NCBI GenBank assembly: GCA_934098505.1
Contig: CAKOOR010000002.1
Coordinates: forward strand, 83,279-147,278
Source of the DNA: an uncultured Bacilli bacterium
Lineage (GTDB): Bacteria; Bacillota_I; Bacilli_A; RF39; UBA660
DNA length: 64,000 nucleotides
Direction: 5' to 3'
In this document: in pieces, positions 13,591 through 54,809 of the stretch
Position numbering within the stretch: the stretch's first letter is position 1
Layout: each line of letters begins with the position of its first letter
Translations under genes and position numbers: made by a program
The notes under the pieces: model-generated
What the model saw: only the letters and a program-made list of their open reading frames with translations
Databases searched by the model: none
Told to the model about the DNA's origin: nothing

Positions 13591-13640
13591 AATTCCTCCT
13601 ATATAAAGTAATATTCTAATTTTTGTATGGTATATCAAAA

Positions 13641-14079
13641 GTTAATTTTACGGCTTGAGGTCGAGTTGAGTTTCTCTAAATATCTTCCACTTGATTACTC
13701 ATTGGCACTTTCGTCTTTAGGATATTTAATTAATATTTAATTCATTAATTACTCGATTGCCACTTAGTCCGCACTTCAATACTCTTAATATAGACAGTCT
13801 AGAGGTTTTCCCTGACATAAGTAACTATACTTATTCGCTTTTGCAAGCATTATTTCAACTTATAGTATTCCTAATACTCACGCACGACATACGTAACTTT
13901 GAAATGACGTAATGAAAGGATGTGGGTTATATGCCATTATAACTTTCCTTAGATTTTAAATCTTATATTCACCCTAACTTGGGCCGATAAAGCAAATATA
14001 AGAAGTGTCGGTAATGTAATTGATGGATTTTTAGCCCCATCTTCATATAGTGTTATGACTAGAATAATGCACCACACAT
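13641..14079 (-). ncRNA. candidate structured leader/ncRNA (~430 nt, ORF-free, GC-richer than surroundings) transcribed from consensus promoter
   Basis: No ORF on either strand. Local GC is elevated. It contains GGGUGAAU and GAUGGGGC segments faintly reminiscent of a c-di-AMP (ydaO) riboswitch. Identity unresolved. Confidence 0.3.
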
Positions 14080-14086
14080 AGCCGAG

Positions 14087-14115
14087 ATTATAACACAAGA
14101 TATTTCGTTTGTCAA
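14087..14115 (-). promoter_or_regulatory. consensus sigma-A promoter (TTGACA-17-TGtTATAAT) reading leftward
   Basis: Minus strand: TTGACA (14115-14110), a 17-bp spacer, then the extended -10 TGTTATAAT (14095-14087). All three elements are perfect matches. Confidence 0.7.
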
Positions 14116-22627: not shown

Positions 22628-24580
22628 ATGAAGTTTATTAAAAAGACTATAAAACTTGGGATAATCTTCAGTATTTTAGGTATTTTAGGCATTATTGGGT
22701 TATACGTTTGTGCTTATTTTTCACCAGTATTGGATATTAAAAGTACAGGACAGTATTACATCTATGATAATGATAATTTCTTAGTTTTTCAAGGAAGTGG
22801 AAATTCGAAGTGGGTTGATTTAAGTGATGTATCGCCTGATTTTATAGATGCTATTATCAGTACAGAAGATAAAAATTTTTATAAACACAATGGTTTTGAT
22901 TATTTAAGAATTATGAAGACCTTATTTCTAAATGTCAAAAAAGGTACAATAGTAGGAGGGGCTTCGACCATCTCGCAACAATATGTTAAAAATTTATTTT
23001 TAGATTTTGATAAAACTTGGGAGCGAAAATTAGAGGAAGCTTGGTTAACGCTGAAACTAGAAGTACATTATTCAAAAGATGATATTTTGGAAGGTTATAT
23101 TAATACAATTAATTTTGGTCAAGGTAATTATGGGATTGAGAATGCAGCGAGTTTTTATTTTAACAAGCATGCCAAGGATTTAACTTTAGAAGAAAGTATT
23201 ATTTTATCGGGTATACCTAAGGGTCCTAGCTATTATAATCCTTTAAGTAATTATGATAATGCCATTAAAAGAGCCAAAGTTGTTGCTACAGCAATGGTTA
23301 ATAACAAGAAAATAGACGAAACAACCAAGGATAATCTTTTTAAAGAAAAGTTAGAAATATATGGTAAAAGAACAGAAAATAATTCCAATACGATTATGTA
23401 TTATCAAGATTTAGTTATGAAAGAATTAGAAGGAATTAGTAGCATACCAACTTCATTAATAGATACCGGTGGTTTAAAAATTTATACTTCATTTAATAAA
23501 GATATTCAAATGTCTTTAGAAAACAGTATCAATAAAAACATTACAGATGAAGAATTACAAGTTGCTAGTATTGTAATAGACCCTAAAACAGGAAATATTA
23601 TGGCTTTGACCGGTGGAAAAGATTATACTAAAAGTCAATATAACAGGGCATCAACTATGAAAAGGCAAGTAGGAAGTACCATGAAACCGTTACTTTATTA
23701 TGCTGCGTTAGAAAATGGTATGACATCGTCTTCGACCTTTTTAAGTCAAGAAACAACTTTTGTTTTTTCACAAAATGATACTTATTCTCCGCAAAACTTT
23801 AATCAAAAATATGCTAATAAAGAAATTACCATGGCGGCAGCTTTAAGTTATAGTGATAATATTTATGCAGTAAAAACGCACCTATTTTTAGGTACTGATA
23901 CCTTAGTCAATATTTCGCATAGGATGGGAATTAAAGAAGATTTACCTAGTATTGCTTCACTTCCTTTAGGTACAGTTGAATTATCCATGTTAGATTTTGC
24001 TAATGCTTACACAACTTTGGCAAGTGGGGGATATAAAAAAGACTTAACTTTCATTCGAAAAGTTACAGATATAAATGGTAATATTTTATACGAAAAAAAA
24101 GATAATAGTACGCAAGTTCTAAATTCTAGTTATACTTATATTTTAAATAATTTACTGACTGCTACTTATGATAGTGCATTCCGCGATTATAACAATCCGA
24201 CAATTATTAGCCTAGCTTCTAAAATCAGTAGAAAATATGCAATGAAAACAGGTACTACTAATACTGATTGCTGGATGATAGGGTATAATCCTGACGTTTT
24301 AATGTTAGTATGGAATGGTTATGATGATAATAGGGAATTAAAGGTTTCTAACAGTATAATTGGTAAAAATATCTGGGTGGATACTGTTGAAGAGTATCTT
24401 AAAGACAAGGAAGATAGTTGGTATGAAAAACCAGATAATGTAGTGGGTATTCCAAGAGATGCTGTTACTGGTAAAGATGTTACTGACGTTAATAAATCTT
24501 TTGTTTATTACTATGTTAAAGGTAGTGAGATTGTTGTTAGTAATGATAATGGCGATAGCAAAGAAAAATTAGAAAATTAA
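22628..24580 (+). CDS. class A penicillin-binding protein (transglycosylase/transpeptidase)
   Basis: The GT51 motifs GGASTISQQYVKN and EEAWLTLKLE, and the STMKP SxxK motif. N-terminal TM. Confidence 0.8.
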   Translation: MKFIKKTIKLGIIFSILGILGIIGLYVCAYFSPVLDIKSTGQYYIYDNDNFLVFQGSGNSKWVDLSDVSPDFIDAIISTEDKNFYKHNGFDYLRIMKTLFLNVKKGTIVGGASTISQQYVKNLFLDFDKTWERKLEEAWLTLKLEVHYSKDDILEGYINTINFGQGNYGIENAASFYFNKHAKDLTLEESIILSGIPKGPSYYNPLSNYDNAIKRAKVVATAMVNNKKIDETTKDNLFKEKLEIYGKRTENNSNTIMYYQDLVMKELEGISSIPTSLIDTGGLKIYTSFNKDIQMSLENSINKNITDEELQVASIVIDPKTGNIMALTGGKDYTKSQYNRASTMKRQVGSTMKPLLYYAALENGMTSSSTFLSQETTFVFSQNDTYSPQNFNQKYANKEITMAAALSYSDNIYAVKTHLFLGTDTLVNISHRMGIKEDLPSIASLPLGTVELSMLDFANAYTTLASGGYKKDLTFIRKVTDINGNILYEKKDNSTQVLNSSYTYILNNLLTATYDSAFRDYNNPTIISLASKISRKYAMKTGTTNTDCWMIGYNPDVLMLVWNGYDDNRELKVSNSIIGKNIWVDTVEEYLKDKEDSWYEKPDNVVGIPRDAVTGKDVTDVNKSFVYYYVKGSEIVVSNDNGDSKEKLEN

Positions 24581-24829: not shown

Positions 24830-26245
24830 TTAGTCAATATCAATGGTAATTTTACAACCATTTTCTTTATTTTCAAATGAGTAATCAACTTTGAAACCTT
24901 GTAATTTCAAATTATTAATAACATCTTCAATATCTTTTTTAGCAATATCTAAATCTTCTTTATGGGTTGAAGGTGTATCATTTGTTAGGTTACCTAAAAG
25001 ACTCATAGGGTCAAATAATTCATCATCTTCTTGTTTATTTAAGTTACTATTTAAGTTTGAATTAATTTGTTCTTGATTATTTTTAATTGGTGTAAAAAAT
25101 TTATTATTTGGATTTAAATTACTAATTGATGAGTTATCAAAACTATTAGCAAATGAATTAGAACTAGTAAAATTAGAATAGCTGTCTGGTTCTGGTAAAG
25201 GTTCATTATCTGAACTTGCACTTAGATTAAGATCTGGTTCTAAAACTTCTAAATCCTTCTTTACCGGAGTTGGTTCTTCTGGCTGATCAAAGTTAAAAGA
25301 GAAATAACCTTTGTTACCAACATTTTGTTTAGCTTGGTCTTCAGGCGCTAGAGGTTCTAAAGTTTCAAAGAAAGTAGTTTTATTTGGTACTTCATAAGGA
25401 TTAGTTAAAACGTCGCTATTATTAGAAATTGGTTCTTGTAAAGGATCAATTATTTCGACATTAGGTTTCTCTAAAATTTTTCCACCATTATTTTCGGTAT
25501 CATCTGGGTTTTCGCTATAATCTTTTAAAATATCATCAGTTGGTTGTAATTTATTAGGATTTTTATTGATGTCAAAAGAATTATTTTTAATAGTATCTGC
25601 ATTAAAACTTAAATCAACTAAAGGAATATCAGTTTTATTTTCTTCTTCTTTTAGTTTTTTTAACTCTTGGTCTAATTGACGAACAGTAAGACGCTCAGTA
25701 ATTATTCGGTTTAACCATTCTTTTTCCTTTTCAGCATCATTTAAAACTAATAGACTTCTAGCGTGTCTTTCACTAATCTTGCCTTCAAGTAAAGCTTGTT
25801 GAACACTTTCGTCTAAGTTTAAAAGACGTAATTTATTAGCAACTGAACTTTGGGAAATTCCCATTTTTTGGGCTAATTGTTCTTGAGTATAACCTTTATC
25901 CAAAAGATTTTTATAACTTCGGGCTTCTTCAATTGGGGTTAAATTTCTTCTTTGAATATTTTCAACAAGGGCTATTTCAGCAGAGGAATTATCATCAATA
26001 TTGGAAATTACAGCAGGAACTGTAGTAAGACCAGCCATGATTGAGGCCTTATAACGTCTTTCACCAGCAATTATTTCATATTTACTTCCTAATTTTCTTA
26101 AAACAAGAGGTTGAATTATACCGTGTTCTTTAATTGAAGAAGCTAATTCTTTTAGACCTTGCTCATCAAAGGCTAATCGTGGTTGGAAACGATTAGGTAT
26201 AATATCATCAACACTTACTTGTAAAACATTATCTTCCATTTTCAT
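24830..26245 (-). CDS. noc: nucleoid occlusion protein Noc-type ParB homologue with ~250-aa low-complexity insertion
   Basis: It is directly downstream of rsmG, the canonical noc position. PNRFQPR, GISQSSVANKLRLL and ISERHAR follow the Noc pattern (PNRFQPR/GQSTIANKLRLL/ITERHAR), not the Spo0J pattern (PNPYQPR/SRPHIANHLRLL). There is a long N/S/P-rich disordered region before the C-terminal domain. Confidence 0.7.
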   Translation of the reverse strand: MKMEDNVLQVSVDDIIPNRFQPRLAFDEQGLKELASSIKEHGIIQPLVLRKLGSKYEIIAGERRYKASIMAGLTTVPAVISNIDDNSSAEIALVENIQRRNLTPIEEARSYKNLLDKGYTQEQLAQKMGISQSSVANKLRLLNLDESVQQALLEGKISERHARSLLVLNDAEKEKEWLNRIITERLTVRQLDQELKKLKEEENKTDIPLVDLSFNADTIKNNSFDINKNPNKLQPTDDILKDYSENPDDTENNGGKILEKPNVEIIDPLQEPISNNSDVLTNPYEVPNKTTFFETLEPLAPEDQAKQNVGNKGYFSFNFDQPEEPTPVKKDLEVLEPDLNLSASSDNEPLPEPDSYSNFTSSNSFANSFDNSSISNLNPNNKFFTPIKNNQEQINSNLNSNLNKQEDDELFDPMSLLGNLTNDTPSTHKEDLDIAKKDIEDVINNLKLQGFKVDYSFENKENGCKITIDID

Positions 26246-26293
26246 ATTTTTTGTGGCCCCTTTACTATTATAGTCTATATTTATCATACATTA

Positions 26294-27016
26294 TTATTGA
26301 CGTTTTTGCAACTTAATTTGTGCGTCCTTTTTGATTGTATTATAACTACGAGGATATTTTTTATTGGTTATTTTTTCTTTATTTATAGTGATAATTACAC
26401 GGTTCATATCTGTTTTAGGAAGAGTAAATTCAGTAATTTTAGTTACTTTAGAATTTAATTTTTGTAAAATATTTTGGGCATCATTCAATTCTTCTTGATA
26501 ATTTGCTTTCATGGCAATAAAATTACCACCAACCTTAAGATAAGGAATAGCAAGTTCACTTAAAATACTAAGATCAGCAACAGCGCGAGAAGTTACAATA
26601 TCATAATATTCTCGACGATTTTGAACAAAAACTTCGGCTCTATCATAAATAATTTCCACATCTATACTTAATTTTTCAGATAGTTCTTTTAAAAAGGCTA
26701 TTTTTTTATTGTTAGAATCTAGGAGTGTTATTTTTAAATTAGGATAACAAATTTTTAAAACCATTCCGGGAAAACCAGCGCCAGTACCAATATCTAATAA
26801 AGTTGTAACTTTGTTTAAATCAACATTTTTTACAATAGTTAGGGAATCATAAAAGTGTTTTAAGTAGACATCAGTTATCGTTTTAATAGCGGTAAGATTG
26901 GTATGTTCATTATATTCTAATAAAAATTTAGCATAATTATCTAAATCTGCAATTTGATTATCATTTAAACTAATTCCTAGTTTATTTACTTCTAATAAGA
27001 AGTCATCTTTAGTCAT
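26294..27016 (-). CDS. rsmG: 16S rRNA (guanine527-N7)-methyltransferase
   Basis: The GidB family motif LLDIGTGAGFPG. Start trimmed to MTKDDFLL, overlapping the mnmG stop. Confidence 0.85.
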   Translation of the reverse strand: MTKDDFLLEVNKLGISLNDNQIADLDNYAKFLLEYNEHTNLTAIKTITDVYLKHFYDSLTIVKNVDLNKVTTLLDIGTGAGFPGMVLKICYPNLKITLLDSNNKKIAFLKELSEKLSIDVEIIYDRAEVFVQNRREYYDIVTSRAVADLSILSELAIPYLKVGGNFIAMKANYQEELNDAQNILQKLNSKVTKITEFTLPKTDMNRVIITINKEKITNKKYPRSYNTIKKDAQIKLQKRQ

Positions 27017-28889
27017 GGCGATTATATTCCTTTCGTAAATAAATGGATAAAATTGAAATATCAGCAGGATTAACACCACTAATTCGCATTGCTTGAGCAA
27101 TAGTTTTAGGGGCTACTTTCTTTAATTTTTGACGAGCCTCACTAGCCAAATTAACAACTTTATCATAATCTAAATCACTAGGGATTTCTTTACTTTCTAG
27201 TTTTAGCATTTTTTCTACTTCTTTATAAGTTTTAGCGATATATCCTTCATATTTAGTACTAATTTCGACTTGTTCTTTAACAGCATCGTTATAATTTATA
27301 TCAGTTAATTTTGATAAAAATGCCAAGTTTATTTCGGGGCGCTTTAATAAATCGTAAAAACTCATTGAATAATTAGGTACTGGAATATTATTTTCCAGAA
27401 AAATAGTTTTTACTTCTTCGTTTAATTTTAATTTAGTATTTTTTAAAAATGTGGTTAAAGCCTCGATATCTTTTTGTTTAGTGATAAAATTATAATATTG
27501 CTCTTTAGTAATGGAATTTACTTGATTAGCAAGGGGACGAAGACGCAAATCAGCGTTATCATGTCTTAAAATTAGTCGAAATTCAGCACGAGAAGTAAGC
27601 ATTCTATAAGGTTCGTTAGTTCCTTTTGTTACTAAATCGTCAATTAATACGCCGATATAAGCCTCATTTCTTTTTAAAATCAAAGGGTCTTGTTGTTCTA
27701 ATTTTAAAGCGGCATTAATACCAGCCACAATGCCTTGACCGGCTGCTTCTTCATAACCACTCGTGCCATTTATCTGACCAGCGGTAAAAATTCCATCTAT
27801 TACTTTGGATTCTAAAGAAGGTTTGATTTGTAAAGGATTAATCGCATCATATTCGATGGCATAGGCATATTTTGAAATTACAGCATTCTCAAGACCAGGT
27901 AGGGAATGAACCATTTGCTCTTGAATATCATGAGGCATTGAAGTAGAAAAACCTTGTAAATACCAATCATCATAATATAAAGATTCTGGTTCTAAGAATA
28001 ATTGATGACGATCTTTATCGTGGAAACGAACTACTTTGTCTTCAATAGAAGGACAATATCTAGGTCCAACACCTTCGACATAACCACCGTACATACTTGA
28101 TTTGTCTAAATTATCTTTGATTATTTTCTTGGTTTCGATGGTAGTATATAAAAGATAACATTTTTGTTGTTTATTTATATCATAGGTTGCAGGGTAATCA
28201 TTAGAGAAGGTCCAATATGTATTATCACCACATTCAGGATGCATTTTAGAAAAATCAATAGATGAGGCTTTAATTCTTTGCGGAGTTCCGGTCTTTAATC
28301 TTTGAATTTGAAACCCATATTTTTTCATATTGGTACTTAGATATTCACTGCGTCTTTCACCATGAGGGCCACCATTATGTTTTTCAGCCCCGCATAAAAT
28401 GCTACCTCTTAAGTAAGTACCGGTCGTTAATATCAAGGCTTGACATTTAATGATTTCGCCAGTTTCTAAAATAACCCCTTTAATTTTATTATCTTCGATA
28501 ACTAAGTCTTCTACCATGCCTTCGATTATATCAAGATTAGGAGTATTTTTTAGTTCTCTTAGCATCTCTTTAGGATAGGTTACTTTATCGGCCTGCGCAC
28601 GTAAACTACGAACGGCAGGTCCTTTGCCACTATTTAACATTTTAATTTGAAAGTGAGTTCGATCTGCCACGCGTCCCATTAAGCCACCTAAAGCATCTAT
28701 TTCGCGAACAATAATACCTTTAGCCGTTCCGCCAATGGAAGGATTGCAAGGCATATCAGCGATATTTTTTAAATTCATGGTGATTAAGGCAGTTTTATGT
28801 CCTTTGAAAGCGGCTATATGAGAAGCTTCGCAACCAGCATGACCACCACCAACAACAATTATTTCATATTCTTTTTCCATAAAATTCAT
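27009..28889 (-). CDS. mnmG: tRNA uridine 5-carboxymethylaminomethyl modification enzyme MnmG
   Basis: The FAD motif IVVGGGHAGCEA. 626 aa. Confidence 0.9.
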   Translation of the reverse strand: MNFMEKEYEIIVVGGGHAGCEASHIAAFKGHKTALITMNLKNIADMPCNPSIGGTAKGIIVREIDALGGLMGRVADRTHFQIKMLNSGKGPAVRSLRAQADKVTYPKEMLRELKNTPNLDIIEGMVEDLVIEDNKIKGVILETGEIIKCQALILTTGTYLRGSILCGAEKHNGGPHGERRSEYLSTNMKKYGFQIQRLKTGTPQRIKASSIDFSKMHPECGDNTYWTFSNDYPATYDINKQQKCYLLYTTIETKKIIKDNLDKSSMYGGYVEGVGPRYCPSIEDKVVRFHDKDRHQLFLEPESLYYDDWYLQGFSTSMPHDIQEQMVHSLPGLENAVISKYAYAIEYDAINPLQIKPSLESKVIDGIFTAGQINGTSGYEEAAGQGIVAGINAALKLEQQDPLILKRNEAYIGVLIDDLVTKGTNEPYRMLTSRAEFRLILRHDNADLRLRPLANQVNSITKEQYYNFITKQKDIEALTTFLKNTKLKLNEEVKTIFLENNIPVPNYSMSFYDLLKRPEINLAFLSKLTDINYNDAVKEQVEISTKYEGYIAKTYKEVEKMLKLESKEIPSDLDYDKVVNLASEARQKLKKVAPKTIAQAMRISGVNPADISILSIYLRKEYNRHD

Positions 28890-36036: not shown

Positions 36037-36501
36037 ATGGAAGAATTATATTCAATTAATGAAGATACATTATTTTTAGAAGGAGTTGTAGATGATAGGG
36101 GTAAAGTTTTAACTAAAATTTATGAACAAGATAAAGTGTTGAAACTTTATGATACACCAACAAACATTATAAGATACGGTTGTGAATACTTTGGCTCGAC
36201 TTTAGAAGGGCGTCAAAAAGGGTCGATGAGTTTATTGGGAATTAAACATAAAGTTCCGGTAATGGTTGAAGGAAGTATGGAATTAATATTCTTTCCAATG
36301 TGTTCACCAAGAATAAGAGATTGTTCGTGGGTATGTTTTAATAATATTGTAAGCTATAAAAGAAGTGGATATGATACAGAGGTATTATTTAAAAATGGTC
36401 AAAAAATAACTTTAAATATTTCTTATGGAATATTTGAAAATCAATATATGCGTGCTACTAAATTAAAAATGGTTAATACCCTAAGAAAATTGGCAAAATA
36501 A
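36037..36501 (+). CDS. comK: competence transcription factor ComK-like
   Basis: CEYFGSTLEGRQKGS...HKVPVMV, IFFPMCSPRIRDCSWV and ISYGIFENQYMRAT align with B. subtilis ComK. Confidence 0.7.
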   Translation: MEELYSINEDTLFLEGVVDDRGKVLTKIYEQDKVLKLYDTPTNIIRYGCEYFGSTLEGRQKGSMSLLGIKHKVPVMVEGSMELIFFPMCSPRIRDCSWVCFNNIVSYKRSGYDTEVLFKNGQKITLNISYGIFENQYMRATKLKMVNTLRKLAK

Positions 36502-42122: not shown

Positions 42123-42722
42123 TGTTTCACGTGAAACGTATAAACAAGTAATAAGTAAAATATAAAAACAATGTTTCACGTGAAACATTGTTTTTTTTGC
42201 ATAATTTTTTAATGTTTCACGTGAAACATTGACTGTTGATAAAATTTTATGGTTATTTGTTTTAAATAAAAGTTATTTTCAATGATATTTAGAATTAATT
42301 TTTTTAAATACTATTTAAAATTTATATGTTTCACGTGAAACATATAAAAAATGTTGATATTTATTATTTAAATAATAATAGGATAATAAAACTTTACAAC
42401 ATTATTTATATTAAAAAACTAATGTTTCACGTGAAACATTGTTATTAACAAGCATATTTGTATGATTAACGTTAAGCTGATTCAATGGCTTATTAAATAA
42501 TTAATAATCTTGCAATAAATATTTAATGCTTTTTGTTTAAAGTATTTTATACATTAAATTAATTTGGCAGCTAAAATTTATTTATATAAATAAATTATTT
42601 TTTGATTTAAGAAATAAATTTTAATTTAATCATTATTTTAATGTTTCACGTGAAACATTAAAATTTTGTTCATAATAAATAATTGCTAATTAATTATTTT
42701 TTATGATGTTTCACGTGAAACA
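42123..42722. repeat. array of seven parS centromere palindromes (TGTTTCACGTGAAACA)
   Basis: Six perfect 16-bp parS copies at 42172, 42213, 42327, 42423, 42642 and 42707, and a 15/16 copy at 42123. The flanks extend each palindrome to 18-26 bp. Confidence 0.85.
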
Positions 42723-43389: not shown

Positions 43390-45030
43390 ATGGATTATCA
43401 AGTATTATATAGAAAATATAGACCTCATGATTTTGATTCTTTGGTAGGTCAGGAATATACGAAAAAATTATTAAAAAATAGCGTTATAAATAATAAGTTT
43501 GCTCATGCCTATATATTTACCGGGCCTAGAGGTACAGGTAAAACAAGTAGTGCTAAAATATTTGCTAAAGCTATTAATTGTTTACATCAGGTTGACGGAA
43601 ATCCATGCAATAAGTGTCAAAATTGTGTAAACTTTGAGAGCAGTCCGGATATAATTGAATTAGATGCTGCTTCTAATAATGGCGTAGATGATATAAGAGA
43701 GATAATAAATAATGTAAGACTAGCACCAAGTAGCATGAAAATTAAGGTTTATATTATTGACGAATTTCATATGTTATCCACAAGTGCTTTTAACGCATTA
43801 TTATTAACTTTAGAAGAGCCACCAAAAGATGTTGTATTTATTTTGGCAACTACTGATATTCAAAGTGTTCCGATAACTGTTTTATCCAGATGTCAAAGAT
43901 TTGATTTTAAACCAATTTCTATTCAAGATATTGAAGATAGATTGAAATATGTTTGTACTGAAGAAAAATTAAATGTTACGGATGAAGCTATTAAAGAAAT
44001 AGCAATGATGTCAAATGGTGGATTGAGAGATGCTTTAAGTATTTTAGATCAAGTAGCAAGTAATGGAGAAGAGATTACTGTTCAAGATGTAATTGCTAAT
44101 TTTGGAGGAGTATCAAATAAAAAGATAAATCAACTATTAGATTATTATGAAGCTAATAGTGTAAGTGAATTAATAGATTATATTAATGAGATTAAAAATG
44201 ATGGTATTGATATAAAAATTTTAATTGATAAATTGGTAACAAGAATTAAAAATGTATTAATAGATATTAAATTAGATAATTATAATGGGAAACTAGATTT
44301 TGATAATTTATATAACTTAGTTTTTGAATTAAATAAATTATTGACTAGTGAGAGAAATGGTGCTAATTATTATGATTTATTAGAAATTATATTTTTAAAG
44401 TATATAAATTATTTCCCGGGAAATAATTTTGTGGATAAAAAAACGACAAAGTTATCTGATCGTGAAAAAGAGTCAGCTGTAATCCAAAATGCGGAAGAAA
44501 GTCCAATAGTATCAGTACCTGCAGCAGAGCAACCAATTATTTCCCAAAAAAATCAATCTCAAGAAAAAAATAAAAATATTGACTTTGATGTAGATATTAG
44601 AATAAATAATACTTTTGTTAATGCTAAAAAAGAATTTTTAAATAATATAAAAAGCAAGTGGAATGATTTTGTTATCTATGAAAGTAATGCTAATAAAGCT
44701 ATGCTATCTTATTTAGCTGATACTAATATTGTTGCAGCTTCGAATAAATATGCGATATTGACTAATAATTTAGATATTACTAATGATTTAATTAATCAAA
44801 ATATTAAAACATTAGAAAAAGATTTTAATTTATTTTTTAATGGTAATTATTGTTTAGCGGCTATATCGCCAAAAAAATGGGAACAAGAACGAAATAAATA
44901 CATAAATAATATCAAAAATGGATATAAATATGAGATAATAGATAATGATATAATTATTAAAGAAGATAAAAGTGAATTAGAAAAGATTGCTAAGGAAATC
45001 TTTGGCAATAATTATAAGAAAGTAGAATAA
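43390..45030 (+). CDS. dnaX: DNA polymerase III subunits gamma/tau
   Basis: GPRGTGKTS Walker A and the Zn module CNKCQNC. Confidence 0.9.
   Translation: MDYQVLYRKYRPHDFDSLVGQEYTKKLLKNSVINNKFAHAYIFTGPRGTGKTSSAKIFAKAINCLHQVDGNPCNKCQNCVNFESSPDIIELDAASNNGVDDIREIINNVRLAPSSMKIKVYIIDEFHMLSTSAFNALLLTLEEPPKDVVFILATTDIQSVPITVLSRCQRFDFKPISIQDIEDRLKYVCTEEKLNVTDEAIKEIAMMSNGGLRDALSILDQVASNGEEITVQDVIANFGGVSNKKINQLLDYYEANSVSELIDYINEIKNDGIDIKILIDKLVTRIKNVLIDIKLDNYNGKLDFDNLYNLVFELNKLLTSERNGANYYDLLEIIFLKYINYFPGNNFVDKKTTKLSDREKESAVIQNAEESPIVSVPAAEQPIISQKNQSQEKNKNIDFDVDIRINNTFVNAKKEFLNNIKSKWNDFVIYESNANKAMLSYLADTNIVAASNKYAILTNNLDITNDLINQNIKTLEKDFNLFFNGNYCLAAISPKKWEQERNKYINNIKNGYKYEIIDNDIIIKEDKSELEKIAKEIFGNNYKKVE
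44406..44441. repeat. 36-bp module: Noc-binding-site palindrome TTATTTCCCGGGAAATAA + DnaA box TGTGGATAA, inside dnaX
   Basis: AAATTATTTCCCGGGAAATAATTTTGTGGATAAAAA is identical to the 46850-46885 copy. Confidence 0.7.
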
Positions 45031-46180: not shown

Positions 46181-46999
46181 ATGAGTAGTTTAAAAATGAT
46201 ACAAAATTTAATTAATAAATATGAGACTGGAAGACTATCTCATGCTTTTTTAGTTGAAACAAATAATATAGATCTATGTTTAAATGATATTAAATTATTT
46301 GTAAAATATATTAATTGTTCACATAAATATAATGAGAATTGCAATGAATGTAATTTGTGCAAGCTAATAGATTTGAATAATTTACCAAGTTTAACTATTA
46401 TTGAACCAGATGGTATGAGTATTAAGAAAAATCAATTGCAAGAATTGCAAGATAAATATAGTATGAAACCTGTATATTCAAAATATAATACTTATATTAT
46501 TTTAAATGCTGAATTGATGAACGCTTCATCTGCTAATAGTATACTTAAATTTTTAGAAGAACCAACTGACCATATAATTGGATTTTTAATAACTACTAAT
46601 AAAGAAAAAATGCTAGATACAATAATTAGTAGATGTCAAAATGTAAAGTTTATTTATAAGGATACAAATGAAAATAATGAAAATATTAAATTAATCGCAA
46701 CAGAGTATTTAGATCAAATAGAAAATGATAATTCATTTTTAATAAATAAAACATTGATTTTGAGTACATTGACAACTAGATATGATATAAATAATTTGTT
46801 TATTGAAATTTTGTATCAATTAATGAAAAAAATTAGAGAAAATTATTTCCCGGGAAATAATTTTGTGGATAAAAATCTAAATAAATATAATATGCAAATT
46901 GAAATCGTTCGAAAAGTTTTAATCATGATTAAACAAAATGTTAATTTAGAATTATTATTAGATTACTTTGTTATAGAGATGAGGAAATTAAATGAATGA
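46181..46999 (+). CDS. holB: DNA polymerase III delta' subunit
   Basis: AAA+-like with a cysteine module CNECNLCK. Positioned before yaaT. Confidence 0.7.
   Translation: MSSLKMIQNLINKYETGRLSHAFLVETNNIDLCLNDIKLFVKYINCSHKYNENCNECNLCKLIDLNNLPSLTIIEPDGMSIKKNQLQELQDKYSMKPVYSKYNTYIILNAELMNASSANSILKFLEEPTDHIIGFLITTNKEKMLDTIISRCQNVKFIYKDTNENNENIKLIATEYLDQIENDNSFLINKTLILSTLTTRYDINNLFIEILYQLMKKIRENYFPGNNFVDKNLNKYNMQIEIVRKVLIMIKQNVNLELLLDYFVIEMRKLNE
46850..46885. repeat. second copy of 36-bp NBS+DnaA-box module, inside holB
   Basis: Identical 36 bp. It encodes YFPGNNFVDK in the same frame as in dnaX. Confidence 0.7.
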
Positions 47000-48477: not shown

Positions 48478-49029
48478 ATGAAATTAATTGTTGGATTAGG
48501 AAATCCTGGTAAGGAATATGAAAATACAAGACATAACATTGGTTTTATGGTACTAAATTATTTTTCGGGAAATAATTTGTGGAAAGAAAAATTTAACGGT
48601 ATGTATTGTCAACAAAATGTAAAGGGAGAAAAAGTTATATTTTTAAAGCCACTTACTTATATGAATTTATCTGGTAGTTGTGTAATTAAATATGTTAAGT
48701 ATTTTGATATTAAAATAGATGACATTTTAATAATTCAAGATGACTTAGATTTACCTTATATGCAGTATCGCTTAAAATATGATAGTTCAGCAGGTGGTCA
48801 CAATGGAATTAAATCAATTATTAATAATTTAGGAACGCAAAAAATACCAAGATTAAAAATAGGTATAGCTCATGATCGTAGTATAGATACTAAGGATTAT
48901 GTGCTGGGACATTTTAATAAAGAAGATTTAATTTTGTTTGAAGAAAAAACTAAAATATTCAATAATATTATAAATGATTTTATTTCCCAAGATATTAATT
49001 ATTGTATGGCAAATTATAATAGAAAATAG
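48478..49029 (+). CDS. pth: peptidyl-tRNA hydrolase
   Basis: MKLIVGLGNPGKEYENTRHNIGF and AGGHNGIKS. Confidence 0.9.
   Translation: MKLIVGLGNPGKEYENTRHNIGFMVLNYFSGNNLWKEKFNGMYCQQNVKGEKVIFLKPLTYMNLSGSCVIKYVKYFDIKIDDILIIQDDLDLPYMQYRLKYDSSAGGHNGIKSIINNLGTQKIPRLKIGIAHDRSIDTKDYVLGHFNKEDLILFEEKTKIFNNIINDFISQDINYCMANYNRK
48555..48590. repeat. degenerate third copy of NBS-like module inside pth
   Basis: AAATTATTTTTCGGGAAATAATTTGTGGAAAGAAAA, in-frame as NYFSGNNLWKEK. Confidence 0.45.
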
Positions 49030-52469: not shown

Positions 52470-54809
52470 ATGGCTAATAGAATGGTTCTTAATGAAACTT
52501 CTTATTTTGGCTGGAATGCTAGAGAAAATTTAGTATCAGAAATCAAAAAAAGAAATTTCAAAAGAATATTAGTTGTAAGTGATGAAAATTTAGTTAAATG
52601 TGGGGTAACTGGTAAAGTAACTGAATTGTTGGATAATGCTAAGATAAAGTATAGTGTCTTCGATAAAGTTAAACCTAATCCAACAATTAGTAATTGTCAT
52701 GATGGGATAAGGGCTGCTAAGAAATTTCATGCTGATAGTTTAATTGCTGTTGGTGGTGGAAGTGTTATTGATACGGCTAAATGTATTGGTATCGTCATTA
52801 ATAATAGAGAATTTTATGATATAAATTCTTTAGAAGGTGTTGCAGATACTAAGAATAAGTCGTTACCTATAATTGCTTTACCAACAACCGCTGGTACGGC
52901 GGCAGAGGTAACAATTAATTATGTAATTACAGATGAAATTGGGAAAGTTAAAAGAGTTTGTGTAGATACAAATGACATTCCTGTTTTAGCAATAATTGAT
53001 ACAGAATTAATGAGTAAAATGCCTAAAATGACGGCTGCTGCCACAGGGTTAGATGCACTAACTCATGCGATGGAAGGATATATTACGAAGGCTCATTGGG
53101 AAATTCCCGATATGTTCCATTTACAAAGTATGGGAATGACTTATAAAAATTTAGTAAAGTCCGTTAATAAAGAACGAGATGCTCAAGAACAAATGGCAAT
53201 GAGTGAATATATTGCGGGTATGGGATTTTCTAATGTCGGACTTGGGATTGTTCATTCCATGGCTCACCAATTAGGGGCAACTTATGATATTGCTCATGGT
53301 ATTGCTTGTAGTTTATTTTTACCATATGTTTTAGAGTGGAATGGAGAAGTTGCTTATGATAGATATCGTAAGATGGCAGAAAGTTTTGGTTTAACAACAA
53401 CTGGCAAAACTGATAAACAATGTGTAGAACTTGTTGTTAGAGCAGTTCGTGATTTAGAAAAGACTTTAAAAGTACCAATGACTTTAAAAGAATTAAATGT
53501 AAGTCCAGATAGTTTTGAAGAAATGGCTGCTAAGGCTTTAATTGATCCTTGTACGGGTGGTAATCCACGAGAAGTTACAAAGGAAGATATTATTGAACTA
53601 TTTAATAGAGCTTATGAAGGAAAAGGAGTTAGTAAAAACATGAGAACTAAAGTTGGTTATAGTGAAAATGTAGATGCTTATACAAGTGGTGTTGAAACTG
53701 CTAAAATGGCTAATAAAATAGAGAATCCACAAGTTGGTTTATTATTTACCAGTTGTGTTCAAGATCAAAAAGAAATCATGAAAGGTATTAAGAGTGTCTT
53801 AAAAGATATAGACATTGTTGGTTGTACTTCTAGTGCTGCTATATGTACTCAAGATGGTTATTTAAATAAACCTACTGGTTATTCTGGGATGATGTTATTA
53901 GGTGGTGGTGCTAAGGTTGTTGCCGCTGGTTCGCCAAAGACTAATGATGATGCTAGAAGTATTGGTCGTAAATTAGCAACTAAGGCTGTTAAAGAGGCTA
54001 ATTGTATTGAAAAACCAAGTTATGTATTTGTAAGTGCTTCACCAAAAGAAGAAGAAGAATACTTAAAAGGTATTGCTGATGTAATTGGTGATGTTCCAGT
54101 ATTTGGTGGTAGTGCTGCTGATAATACAGTTGAAGGTAAATGGAGTTTACTATATAATGGTGAGGCTTTTGCTGATGGTTGTGTTATGGCTTTAATTTAT
54201 GCTGATACTGAGATTAAAAACTTGTATACAGGTAATTATATAGAAACTAATGACGCTGGTTTAATTACCGAAGTTAAAGATAAAAGAACATTAGTATCTA
54301 TTAATGGAAAACCTGCATTAGATGTTTATGCTGATTGGACTGGTAAAAAGATAGAAGACATGATGGGTAATAATTTATTAACAGAAACAATCTTCAATCC
54401 ACTTGGAGTAAAAGATCAAATTGGTAATGTTACGGCTGTTAGACATCCGATGTTTGCTAATGTTGATAAATCAATGAATATTGGGGCTAATTTAGAAGAA
54501 AATACGGCTATTATTCATTTAACTAATACCCCAGAAGGTATGTTAGATAGTAATGCTTGTGTAGTTAAGAAATTAAATGATTTAATGGATAATACACCAG
54601 AAAGTTATTTCCTTGTTCACTGTGGTGGTCGTCGTTTAGGACTTCAATTAACTAATATGGAAGATAAAATTTATCCAGCTATTAAGAAGGCAATTCCTAA
54701 AAAAGAATTCTTAATGGTATTTACCTTTGGTGAATATGGTAGATGTGAACATTCTAGTAATATTGTTGGTGGTTTATCTCTATCATTTACTGGATTTGGA
54801 AAGGAATAA
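52470..54809 (+). CDS. iron-containing alcohol dehydrogenase fused to an uncharacterised ~390-aa C-terminal domain (possibly FIST-like sensor fold)
   Basis: The N-terminal half carries Fe-ADH motifs (GGGSVIDTAK, the His cluster HAMEGY...HSMAHQLG). The C-terminal half has no ALDH or ADH motifs and ends FTFGEYG...HSSN. Confidence 0.6.
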   Translation: MANRMVLNETSYFGWNARENLVSEIKKRNFKRILVVSDENLVKCGVTGKVTELLDNAKIKYSVFDKVKPNPTISNCHDGIRAAKKFHADSLIAVGGGSVIDTAKCIGIVINNREFYDINSLEGVADTKNKSLPIIALPTTAGTAAEVTINYVITDEIGKVKRVCVDTNDIPVLAIIDTELMSKMPKMTAAATGLDALTHAMEGYITKAHWEIPDMFHLQSMGMTYKNLVKSVNKERDAQEQMAMSEYIAGMGFSNVGLGIVHSMAHQLGATYDIAHGIACSLFLPYVLEWNGEVAYDRYRKMAESFGLTTTGKTDKQCVELVVRAVRDLEKTLKVPMTLKELNVSPDSFEEMAAKALIDPCTGGNPREVTKEDIIELFNRAYEGKGVSKNMRTKVGYSENVDAYTSGVETAKMANKIENPQVGLLFTSCVQDQKEIMKGIKSVLKDIDIVGCTSSAAICTQDGYLNKPTGYSGMMLLGGGAKVVAAGSPKTNDDARSIGRKLATKAVKEANCIEKPSYVFVSASPKEEEEYLKGIADVIGDVPVFGGSAADNTVEGKWSLLYNGEAFADGCVMALIYADTEIKNLYTGNYIETNDAGLITEVKDKRTLVSINGKPALDVYADWTGKKIEDMMGNNLLTETIFNPLGVKDQIGNVTAVRHPMFANVDKSMNIGANLEENTAIIHLTNTPEGMLDSNACVVKKLNDLMDNTPESYFLVHCGGRRLGLQLTNMEDKIYPAIKKAIPKKEFLMVFTFGEYGRCEHSSNIVGGLSLSFTGFGKE

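Follow-up and report, generated by a model that had tools for sequence, protein, structure and literature searches.

What would a Noc-type protein do whose gene is not followed by soj-spo0J and which lacks the helix by which Noc binds the membrane? The question is raised by a ParB-family gene in a 64,000-nucleotide stretch of DNA from an uncultured Bacilli bacterium (the window; positions 83,279 to 147,278 of contig CAKOOR010000002.1), where one intact open reading frame (ORF) extends from its first ATG across 24830..26287 of the minus strand, encodes 485 amino acids and begins 6 nt after rsmG. By ancestry this gene, here called noc, belongs to the Noc branch. It is read here, with a probability of roughly 0.6 for the reading as a whole, as a ParB paralogue of uncultured, spore-forming gut Bacilli of low guanine-plus-cytosine (GC) content, which would form an origin-proximal clamp and signal through a long disordered linker. 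As the helix that defines Noc was not found and the score against the curated Noc model lies below its cut-off, the product is referred to as a Noc-clade variant rather than as Noc. Coordinates in the window follow the 485-residue ORF, and some residue numbers are given in the numbering of a probable 472-residue product.

Ancestry and DNA recognition

Pfam assigned residues 20-112 to the ParB N-terminal CTPase domain (CTP, cytidine triphosphate; ParB_N, E=7e-33; 25952..26230, minus strand) and residues 115-213 to the helix-turn-helix (HTH) domain that binds DNA (HTH_ParB; 25649..25945, minus strand), and recognised no domain in the remaining 270 residues. Across 70 homologues, with identities down to 48%, the motif residues of IQPLVLRK, GERRYKA and ENIQRR are invariant (Q46-K52, G62-R65, E96, N97, Q99 and R100 in the 472-residue numbering). 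The protein furthermore contains PNRFQPR, SQSSVANKLRLL and ISERHAR, and was aligned with B. subtilis Spo0J (6sdk), B. subtilis Noc (7ol9) and Geobacillus Noc (7ng0) at the four specificity positions defined for the ParB/Noc family by Jalal et al. 2020 (PMC7383237). These positions read R, H, T and G in the recognition-helix region of B. subtilis Spo0J (GKSRPHIANHLRLLTL...LSMGHGR), Q, K, K and R in that of B. subtilis Noc (GKGQSTIANKLRLLKL...ITERHAR), and Q, K, N and R in that of the window protein (GISQSSVANKLRLLNL...ISERHAR; Q146, K152, N157 and R174). R173 and G201 are reported to be fully conserved among ParB proteins that bind parS, while Q173 and R201 read two bases specific to the Noc-binding site (NBS), given a lysine at 179, 184 or both (PMC7383237). 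The window protein carries Q and R in place of the parS-reading R173 and G201 (RxxG), and since Q-K-N-R combines Q173 and R201 with one lysine, a preference for NBS is expected. The sequence-only reading, an earlier interpretation of this DNA made without database searches, had placed a Noc-type ParB homologue directly after rsmG and credited it with Noc-type specificity residues; the placement is confirmed (rsmG from 26294, the ORF over 24830..26287, minus strand), and the residues proved to be those of Noc at three positions and N instead of K at position 184, with the Spo0J set of R, H, T and G found at none of them. Q-K-N-R is not among the variants in the supplements of Jalal 2020; of the 120 homologues nearest to it in the database, 117 carry this set, and in remoter members of the clade position 184 is occupied by K, D or T.

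The assignment to the Noc branch agrees with comparisons of sequence, fold and phylogeny. By sequence, the best solved relatives are the Geobacillus Noc structures 7ng0 and 7nfu (E ~1e-57), with the Spo0J proteins of B. subtilis and Thermus and the Noc of B. subtilis next at ~1e-50. In the comparison of folds, the five highest-ranking PDB matches were all Noc structures, and superposition of the DNA-binding domain on 6y93, the complex of Noc with NBS, gave a template modelling (TM) score of 0.90 and a root-mean-square deviation of 1.2-1.6 Å. The NCBIfam Noc model TIGR04285 scored 271.6 bits as compared to 177.6 bits for the generic ParB model. In a neighbour-joining tree built from a small sample of 25 N-terminal plus DNA-binding regions (200 columns), Bacillus and Geobacillus Noc join the long-linker proteins in a group that is split from all Spo0J proteins with a bootstrap value of 91/100, and the long-linker clade alone receives 100/100. 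At the other end of the protein, residues 442-485 (24833..24964, minus strand) are predicted to form one helix and two strands. The C-terminal 83 residues alone gave no significant sequence match in the PDB; the last 44 residues match positions 209-253 of TIGR04285 with 12.9 bits alone and contribute about 15 bits in a construct from which the linker had been deleted. A C-terminal dimerisation-like domain of about 50 residues had been proposed from the sequence, and the profile match accords with it; the evidence that these 44 residues represent a Noc-type dimerisation domain, which comes from the profile and the predicted structure, is weak but consistent. Judged by sequence, both the recognition of DNA and the chemistry of the clamp have probably been kept.

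Missing helix and disordered linker

The probable coding sequence of noc is shorter than the ORF. An AAAGGGG element lies 11 nt 5' of the ATG at 26248, which specifies M14, no ribosome-binding site was found in front of the ATG at 26287, and distant homologues, from a CAG:956 protein (82% identical) outward, start with MKMEDN or MQMESQ; the 13-residue N-terminal extension is common to the closest congeners only. For these reasons M14 is probably the true start, yielding a product of 472 residues (24830..26248, minus strand) with the first 13 residues not translated, so that the length of 485 residues given previously holds for the ORF and probably not for the protein. A protein that begins here has no more than 5-6 residues ahead of its ParB N domain, and the reading frame upstream is closed by a stop adjoining rsmG. 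The canonical Noc N-terminus is made up of an amphipathic helix of 10 residues, another helix and a loop (26 residues in Geobacillus), and binds the membrane under CTP control (Jalal 2021, PMC8429893); it was found to be extremely conserved across the Noc homologues examined by Adams et al. 2015, and necessary for function (PMC4331003). Neither this conserved motif nor its spacer was found in any homologue of the clade, and in nearly all of these the ParB N domain is reached within 5-10 residues of the start. The homologue on L014 has an 18-residue N-terminal extension, apparently unrelated to the Noc helix, and a remote homologue on L117 has an in-frame stop just upstream and no helix. The LG(K/R)GL motif that activates ParA was likewise not found in the window protein.

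Between the DNA-binding and C-terminal domains lies an expanded linker of approximately 223 residues (residues 219-441; 24965..25633, minus strand), consisting of a conserved proximal segment followed by about 196 residues of predicted disorder. An AlphaFold2 model built with the 70-sequence alignment, in 472-residue numbering, has a confident core at residues 1-205, intermediate confidence at 206-232, a predicted local distance difference test (pLDDT) score almost entirely below 50 at 233-428, and one helix with two strands at 429-472 (pLDDT 80-89). The disordered insertion of about 250 residues suspected earlier is accordingly disordered in the model, and shorter, at about 196 residues, or about 223 if the whole interval between domains is counted. 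Once residues 219-441 were deleted, the match to the Noc profile ran from end to end (287.1 bits, positions 2-253 of 255). The linker contains 36 D/E as compared to 11 K/R, 30 N, 20 S, 20 P and 15 aromatic residues, and owing to its net charge of about -25 it is unlikely to bind membranes itself. Ratios of non-synonymous to synonymous substitution (dN/dS) computed against congeneric species are 0.005-0.02 for the core (N-terminal and DNA-binding domains), 0.04-0.09 for the C-terminal domain and 0.22-0.27 for the linker; the last value indicates a segment that is relaxed, yet coding and under purifying selection. More than 100 homologues, of 353-670 residues, are each encoded by a single ORF, and their linkers vary in length by in-frame insertions and deletions only.

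Four short motifs are conserved within this linker, all encoded on the minus strand: DIPLVDLxPNIExIKNNAxDIN (M1; residues 220-241, 25565..25630), NKFFNxLE(D/E), which reads NKTTFFETLE in the window (M2; residues 302-311, 25355..25384), ELNPNN(K/R)FF(T/Q)PI (M3; residues 391-401, 25085..25117) and EE(L/I)(I/F)(D/N)PMx(L/F)(V/L) (M4; residues 421-434, 24986..25027). Across the 70 sequences N395, F397 and F398 of M3 and P427 of M4 are invariant, M428 is present in 69, and a copy-like IIDPL resembling M4 is found at residues 277-281. Remoter lineages retain related motifs (NKFFNFLEDE, IIDPLDSVIKL and QYDPIMP), and in the 670-residue homologue on L019 (L019:9998-12010) the linker comprises four to five tandem repeats of about 62 residues, each bearing LPWLNDPLF, which resembles the (D/N)P(M/L) motif ahead of the C-terminal domain in the family of the window protein. 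The motifs are absent from every other ORF of the window. As they are conserved, repeated and acidic-aromatic, and lie within a disordered arm, M1-M4 are most plausibly docking sites for a putative protein partner; to our knowledge, no partner is known for NKFF or (D/N)PM motifs. Likenesses to the FtsZ C-terminal peptide, the SSB tail and clamp-binding motifs were considered and judged too loose.

Binding sites near the origin and the place of soj-spo0J

The window covers an origin region of about 28% GC, in which rnpA-yidC-jag-mnmE-mnmG-rsmG on the minus strand and dnaA-dnaN-(ComK-like)-recF-gyrB-gyrA on the plus strand both lead away from oriC. An array of six perfect and one single-mismatch 16-bp parS sites (TGTTTCACGTGAAACA) lies at 42123..42722, between gyrA and the gene for the signal recognition particle RNA; these 7 sites in 600 bp compare with 0.04 expected, and the array begins 15.8 kb from noc, in line with the distance of 16 kb that had been read from the sequence. 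Two perfect 16-bp NBS (TATTTCCCGGGAAATA), against an expectation of about 1.4e-4 from composition, are located inside dnaX (44410..44425) and inside holB (46844..46859), each within the same 24-bp palindrome AAATTATTTCCCGGGAAATAATTT, and a related site with two mismatches lies inside pth (48559..48574), a position that carries an NBS with no more than one mismatch in congeners L055-L058. All three sites are kept in position within the genus. They stand in coding DNA in one common reading frame (YFPGNNF, YFPGNNF and YFSGNNL), and the 24-bp element appears to be selected as DNA and tolerated as peptide.

Beyond the window, 80 loci around relatives of GyrA (59-96% identity) were surveyed and perfect sites were counted by region; as many of these loci are redundant strains, the totals overstate the effective sample. 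The first 1.5 kb downstream of gyrA (89 kb in all) held 112 parS and 46 NBS, the interval from 1.5 to 10 kb (329 kb) held 4 parS and 36 NBS, and the sequence upstream of gyrA (505 kb) held no parS and 3 NBS; 82 of the 85 perfect NBS thus fall no more than 10 kb downstream of gyrA. In about 746 kb of loci centred on noc, spo0J or the left flank of the window there was no perfect parS and a single NBS, and allowing two mismatches in these loci added one NBS only. The parS array behind gyrA is found clade-wide: of the 60 related loci long enough to be scored, 34 have between 2 and 8 perfect parS in the 1.5 kb that follow gyrA. Distant lineages also share an NBS about 2 kb beyond gyrA. The two kinds of site may be interleaved: parS and NBS are separated by 10 bp on L070 (3410-3870), a 119-bp tandem unit with one of each is repeated 4-5 times on L078 (12500-13020), and L127 (12440-14700) carries 8 parS and 5 NBS. 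Arrays of a two-mismatch parS variant with a period of about 100 bp were seen in some lineages (L122, L091). Counted as exact matches in the shared palindrome frame, the window and the 80 gyrA loci contain 123 parS, 87 NBS and 8 other combinations, and this near-lack of hybrids suggests that two separate homodimeric readers are maintained. A few lineages have only NBS-type sites within 10 kb of gyrA, and in these the Noc paralogue may have taken over the marking of the origin.

The canonical place of soj-spo0J is behind noc. The claim that soj-spo0J is missing from that place is upheld: it is absent there in the window and in the related loci L001-L016 and L018-L020, and present in L017. The slot that soj-spo0J holds in B. 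subtilis and L017 is occupied by a class A penicillin-binding protein (PBP) gene with transglycosylase and transpeptidase domains (22628..24580, plus strand), which does lie directly downstream of noc, as had been noted, in convergent, tail-to-tail orientation and not the divergent one that had been proposed. No second ParB or ParA was detected in the window by tblastn with the ParB N domain and Soj or by Pfam on 35 of its larger ORFs (the B. subtilis Soj query detected the soj of L017 at 59% identity), and neither soj nor spo0J was found in the 10 kb to the left of the window; on the right, the end gene occurs only on contigs of about 2 kb. The earlier statement that the PBP gene replaces soj-spo0J describes position and should not be read as loss, since the parS array implies that a ParB binding parS is encoded elsewhere, and this is the strongest argument for a canonical Spo0J in the genome. 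It is most likely that soj-spo0J lies elsewhere in the genome.

Comparison of gene order points to an old rearrangement that would have parted the soj-spo0J operon from noc. The order rsmG-noc followed by convergent PBP, DUF1934 and argS genes is kept in L001-L015 and also in one lineage with a Noc that is 53% identical over its full length. The related genome L017 retains mnmG-noc-soj-spo0J-mscS-abgT, and its Noc has a long linker and no helix, so the linker is either older than the rearrangement or independent of it. Spo0J proteins 64-77% identical to that of L017 are abundant in gut Bacilli contigs of ~29-32% GC; nearly all have RxxG, all have an N-terminal LGxGL, and their linkers are short and basic. 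Many of them read ALGMGL where LG(K/R)GL is usual. In four of the five Spo0J lineages examined the order is whiA-soj-spo0J-mscS-DUF951-abgT-ychF, and one further lineage has the same downstream genes with ftsH upstream of soj. With longer flanks, the block of one lineage was seen to run on into rpsF-ssb-rpsR-rplI-dnaC, and the stretch from soj-spo0J to these genes is the block that follows noc in B. subtilis, here joined to whiA. This junction appears to be the opposite flank of the breakpoint behind noc. In the Spo0J loci L022-L030 and L035-L044 the soj-spo0J block is joined to lgt-trxB-whiA instead of noc, and neither parS nor NBS was found within these loci.

Other features of the region are recorded here as observations in their own right. 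Gene calls on identical contigs give rsmG (gidB) as 240 residues (26294..27016, minus strand), still overlapping mnmG by 8 nt, and the mechanical ORF from a TTG (26294-27100, minus strand; 268 residues) overlaps mnmG by 92 nt. Public records name relatives 'Mycoplasma sp. CAG:956' or 'uncultured Bacilli'. The window contains the sporulation genes spoIIR and spoIID, and cotJB and a Mn-catalase (cotJC-like) gene lie just to its left. A ComK-family ORF (36037-36501, plus strand) between dnaN and recF is annotated on the identical contig L001. An OLE RNA matching the full-length model (13611-14091, minus strand; 201.9 bits) in this human-gut low-GC Bacilli genome adjoins Alg13/Alg14-like glycosyltransferase genes, and at 52470-54809 (plus strand) an unusual 779-residue fusion of an iron-containing alcohol dehydrogenase (the N-terminal 380 residues) with FIST N and C sensor domains is followed by an aldehyde dehydrogenase gene.

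Proposed mechanism and alternative readings

With Noc of B. subtilis, Geobacillus thermoleovorans and Staphylococcus aureus, the window protein has in common the CTPase domain with intact ParB boxes, an HTH with Q173, K179 and R201, the 16-bp NBS in the genome, a putative C-terminal domain for dimerisation, the gene position after rsmG and the grouping in the tree. It differs from Noc in having neither the N-terminal amphipathic membrane-targeting helix nor its spacer, N instead of K at 184, an acidic disordered linker of ~200-220 residues with conserved short motifs where Noc has a short one, and a score under the NCBIfam Noc cut-off; noc is not followed by soj-spo0J, and in the sampled loci the NBS of the clade cluster beside parS near gyrA, unlike the scattered sites of Noc. 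Chromosomal ParB/Spo0J shares the fold, the domain order, the CTP motifs and, in parS, sites next to oriC, but the window protein has neither R173 and G201 nor LG(K/R)GL, and no ParA gene adjoins it; the canonical Spo0J proteins of similar low-GC gut Bacilli contigs, with their short basic linkers, form a clade separate from the long-linker Noc proteins. RacA of B. subtilis, a spore former, is an origin-region anchoring protein with clustered origin-proximal sites and a protein partner through which it acts. It has an unrelated fold and is not a homologue; as a functional analogy only, a RacA-like role would fit the origin-proximal NBS cluster and the putative docking motifs of the linker. In the literature covered (a full-text search by titles and abstracts, plus the cited Noc papers), no Noc without the helix was described, nor a Noc with a long disordered arm, nor NBS interleaved with parS.

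In the mechanism that we propose, the protein, dimerised through its C-terminal domain, would nucleate on the 16-bp NBS via the HTH bearing Q173, K179 and R201, bind CTP through the intact ParB-box motifs and close into a clamp that slides on DNA. Its linker motifs would dock a putative protein partner, such that an origin-proximal nucleoprotein complex beside that of Spo0J would signal through the linker and not by direct binding of the membrane. The stronger form of this proposal, which we put forward only tentatively, is that in this clade of reduced-genome gut Bacilli the Noc paralogue is no longer a genome-wide division inhibitor that tethers DNA to the membrane but a second CTP clamp of the centromere region, loading just to the right of oriC at NBS that pair or alternate with parS, in some lineages in tandem parS+NBS units, and recruiting a partner to the origin via the acidic arm. 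The suggestion in the sequence-only reading of a remodelled partition or nucleoid-occlusion system is supported by the missing membrane helix and by the clustering of NBS with parS near gyrA.

Several observations weigh against the origin-proximal clamp reading. Position 184 is N and not the K typical of Noc, and the curated cut-off of TIGR04285 (315 bits) is missed by the native protein as well as by the linker-deleted construct at 287.1 bits. NBS binding, CTP-dependent clamping and C-terminal dimerisation are all predicted from sequence. The restriction of NBS to the origin derives from sampled, often redundant loci and not from whole genomes, and among the five Spo0J matches examined none shared an assembly, contig or sample with a long-linker Noc.

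This last result, together with the failure to detect a second ParB or ParA in the window or a soj or spo0J in the 10 kb to its left, is what one would expect if the window protein were the sole ParB-family protein, serving as the centromere-binding protein of the parS array after a true loss of soj-spo0J. We consider this very unlikely, as Q173 and R201 stand where full conservation of R173 and G201 is reported for parS binders (PMC7383237), as parS and NBS form two discrete types with almost no hybrids and perfect NBS lie beside parS, and as canonical RxxG Spo0J and Soj are abundant in gut Bacilli contigs of ~29-32% GC. An origin of the long ORF by frameshift or mis-assembly, fusing a short ParB gene to a small downstream gene across non-coding DNA, could appeal to the low complexity and AT-richness of the linker, which resembles intergenic DNA of this genome; the probability of such an artefact is negligible. 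At least 23 independent human gut metagenome contigs encode the identical protein, and this, the single-ORF homologues with in-frame indels only, the linker dN/dS of about 0.25, the four motifs with their invariant residues and the match of the C-terminal 44 residues to the end of the Noc profile refute it, and with it the frameshifted fusion that the sequence-only reading had named as one outcome that would count against it.

A more serious alternative, although one we regard as improbable, is that the protein is an ordinary nucleoid-occlusion Noc, which still ties DNA to the membrane or obstructs the divisome over the nucleoid, with the aromatic motifs of the linker (NKFF twice, FDPM) replacing the lost helix, and for which an origin-proximal NBS cluster and spreading would be sufficient in a small genome. 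It draws on the membership of the Noc clade, the NBS-type residues and the NBS sites themselves, and on the fact that NBS near the origin leave the terminus free, in keeping with the logic of nucleoid occlusion (PMC7383237). Against it, the 36 D/E to 11 K/R of the linker are unfavourable for anionic membranes, its FF motifs are flanked by proline with no helix predicted, and the N-terminal helix is necessary and was conserved in all Noc homologues examined by Adams 2015 (PMC4331003). The linker motifs may also be set beside the RFF-like aromatic core of the canonical Noc helix, a likeness that we count for the ordinary Noc. Of these readings, an origin-proximal Noc-branch clamp that signals through its linker remains the one we prefer.

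Noc has served as a model both for how a duplicated ParB gains a new DNA specificity and for how a CTP switch controls membrane binding. The clade described here keeps the NBS specificity residues and the CTP motifs without the membrane helix, and has instead a long arm bearing motifs and sites beside parS. The composite parS-NBS arrays raise the question of whether two paralogous sliding clamps that load at sites 10 bp apart would act together, interfere with one another or limit how far the other spreads, and the proteins and sites are short enough for reconstitution in vitro although the organisms are uncultured. The system is of interest to specialists in ParB and Noc, for whom the clade parts the NBS-specific clamp from the membrane tether and poses the question of which further roles a clamp of the Noc type can take.

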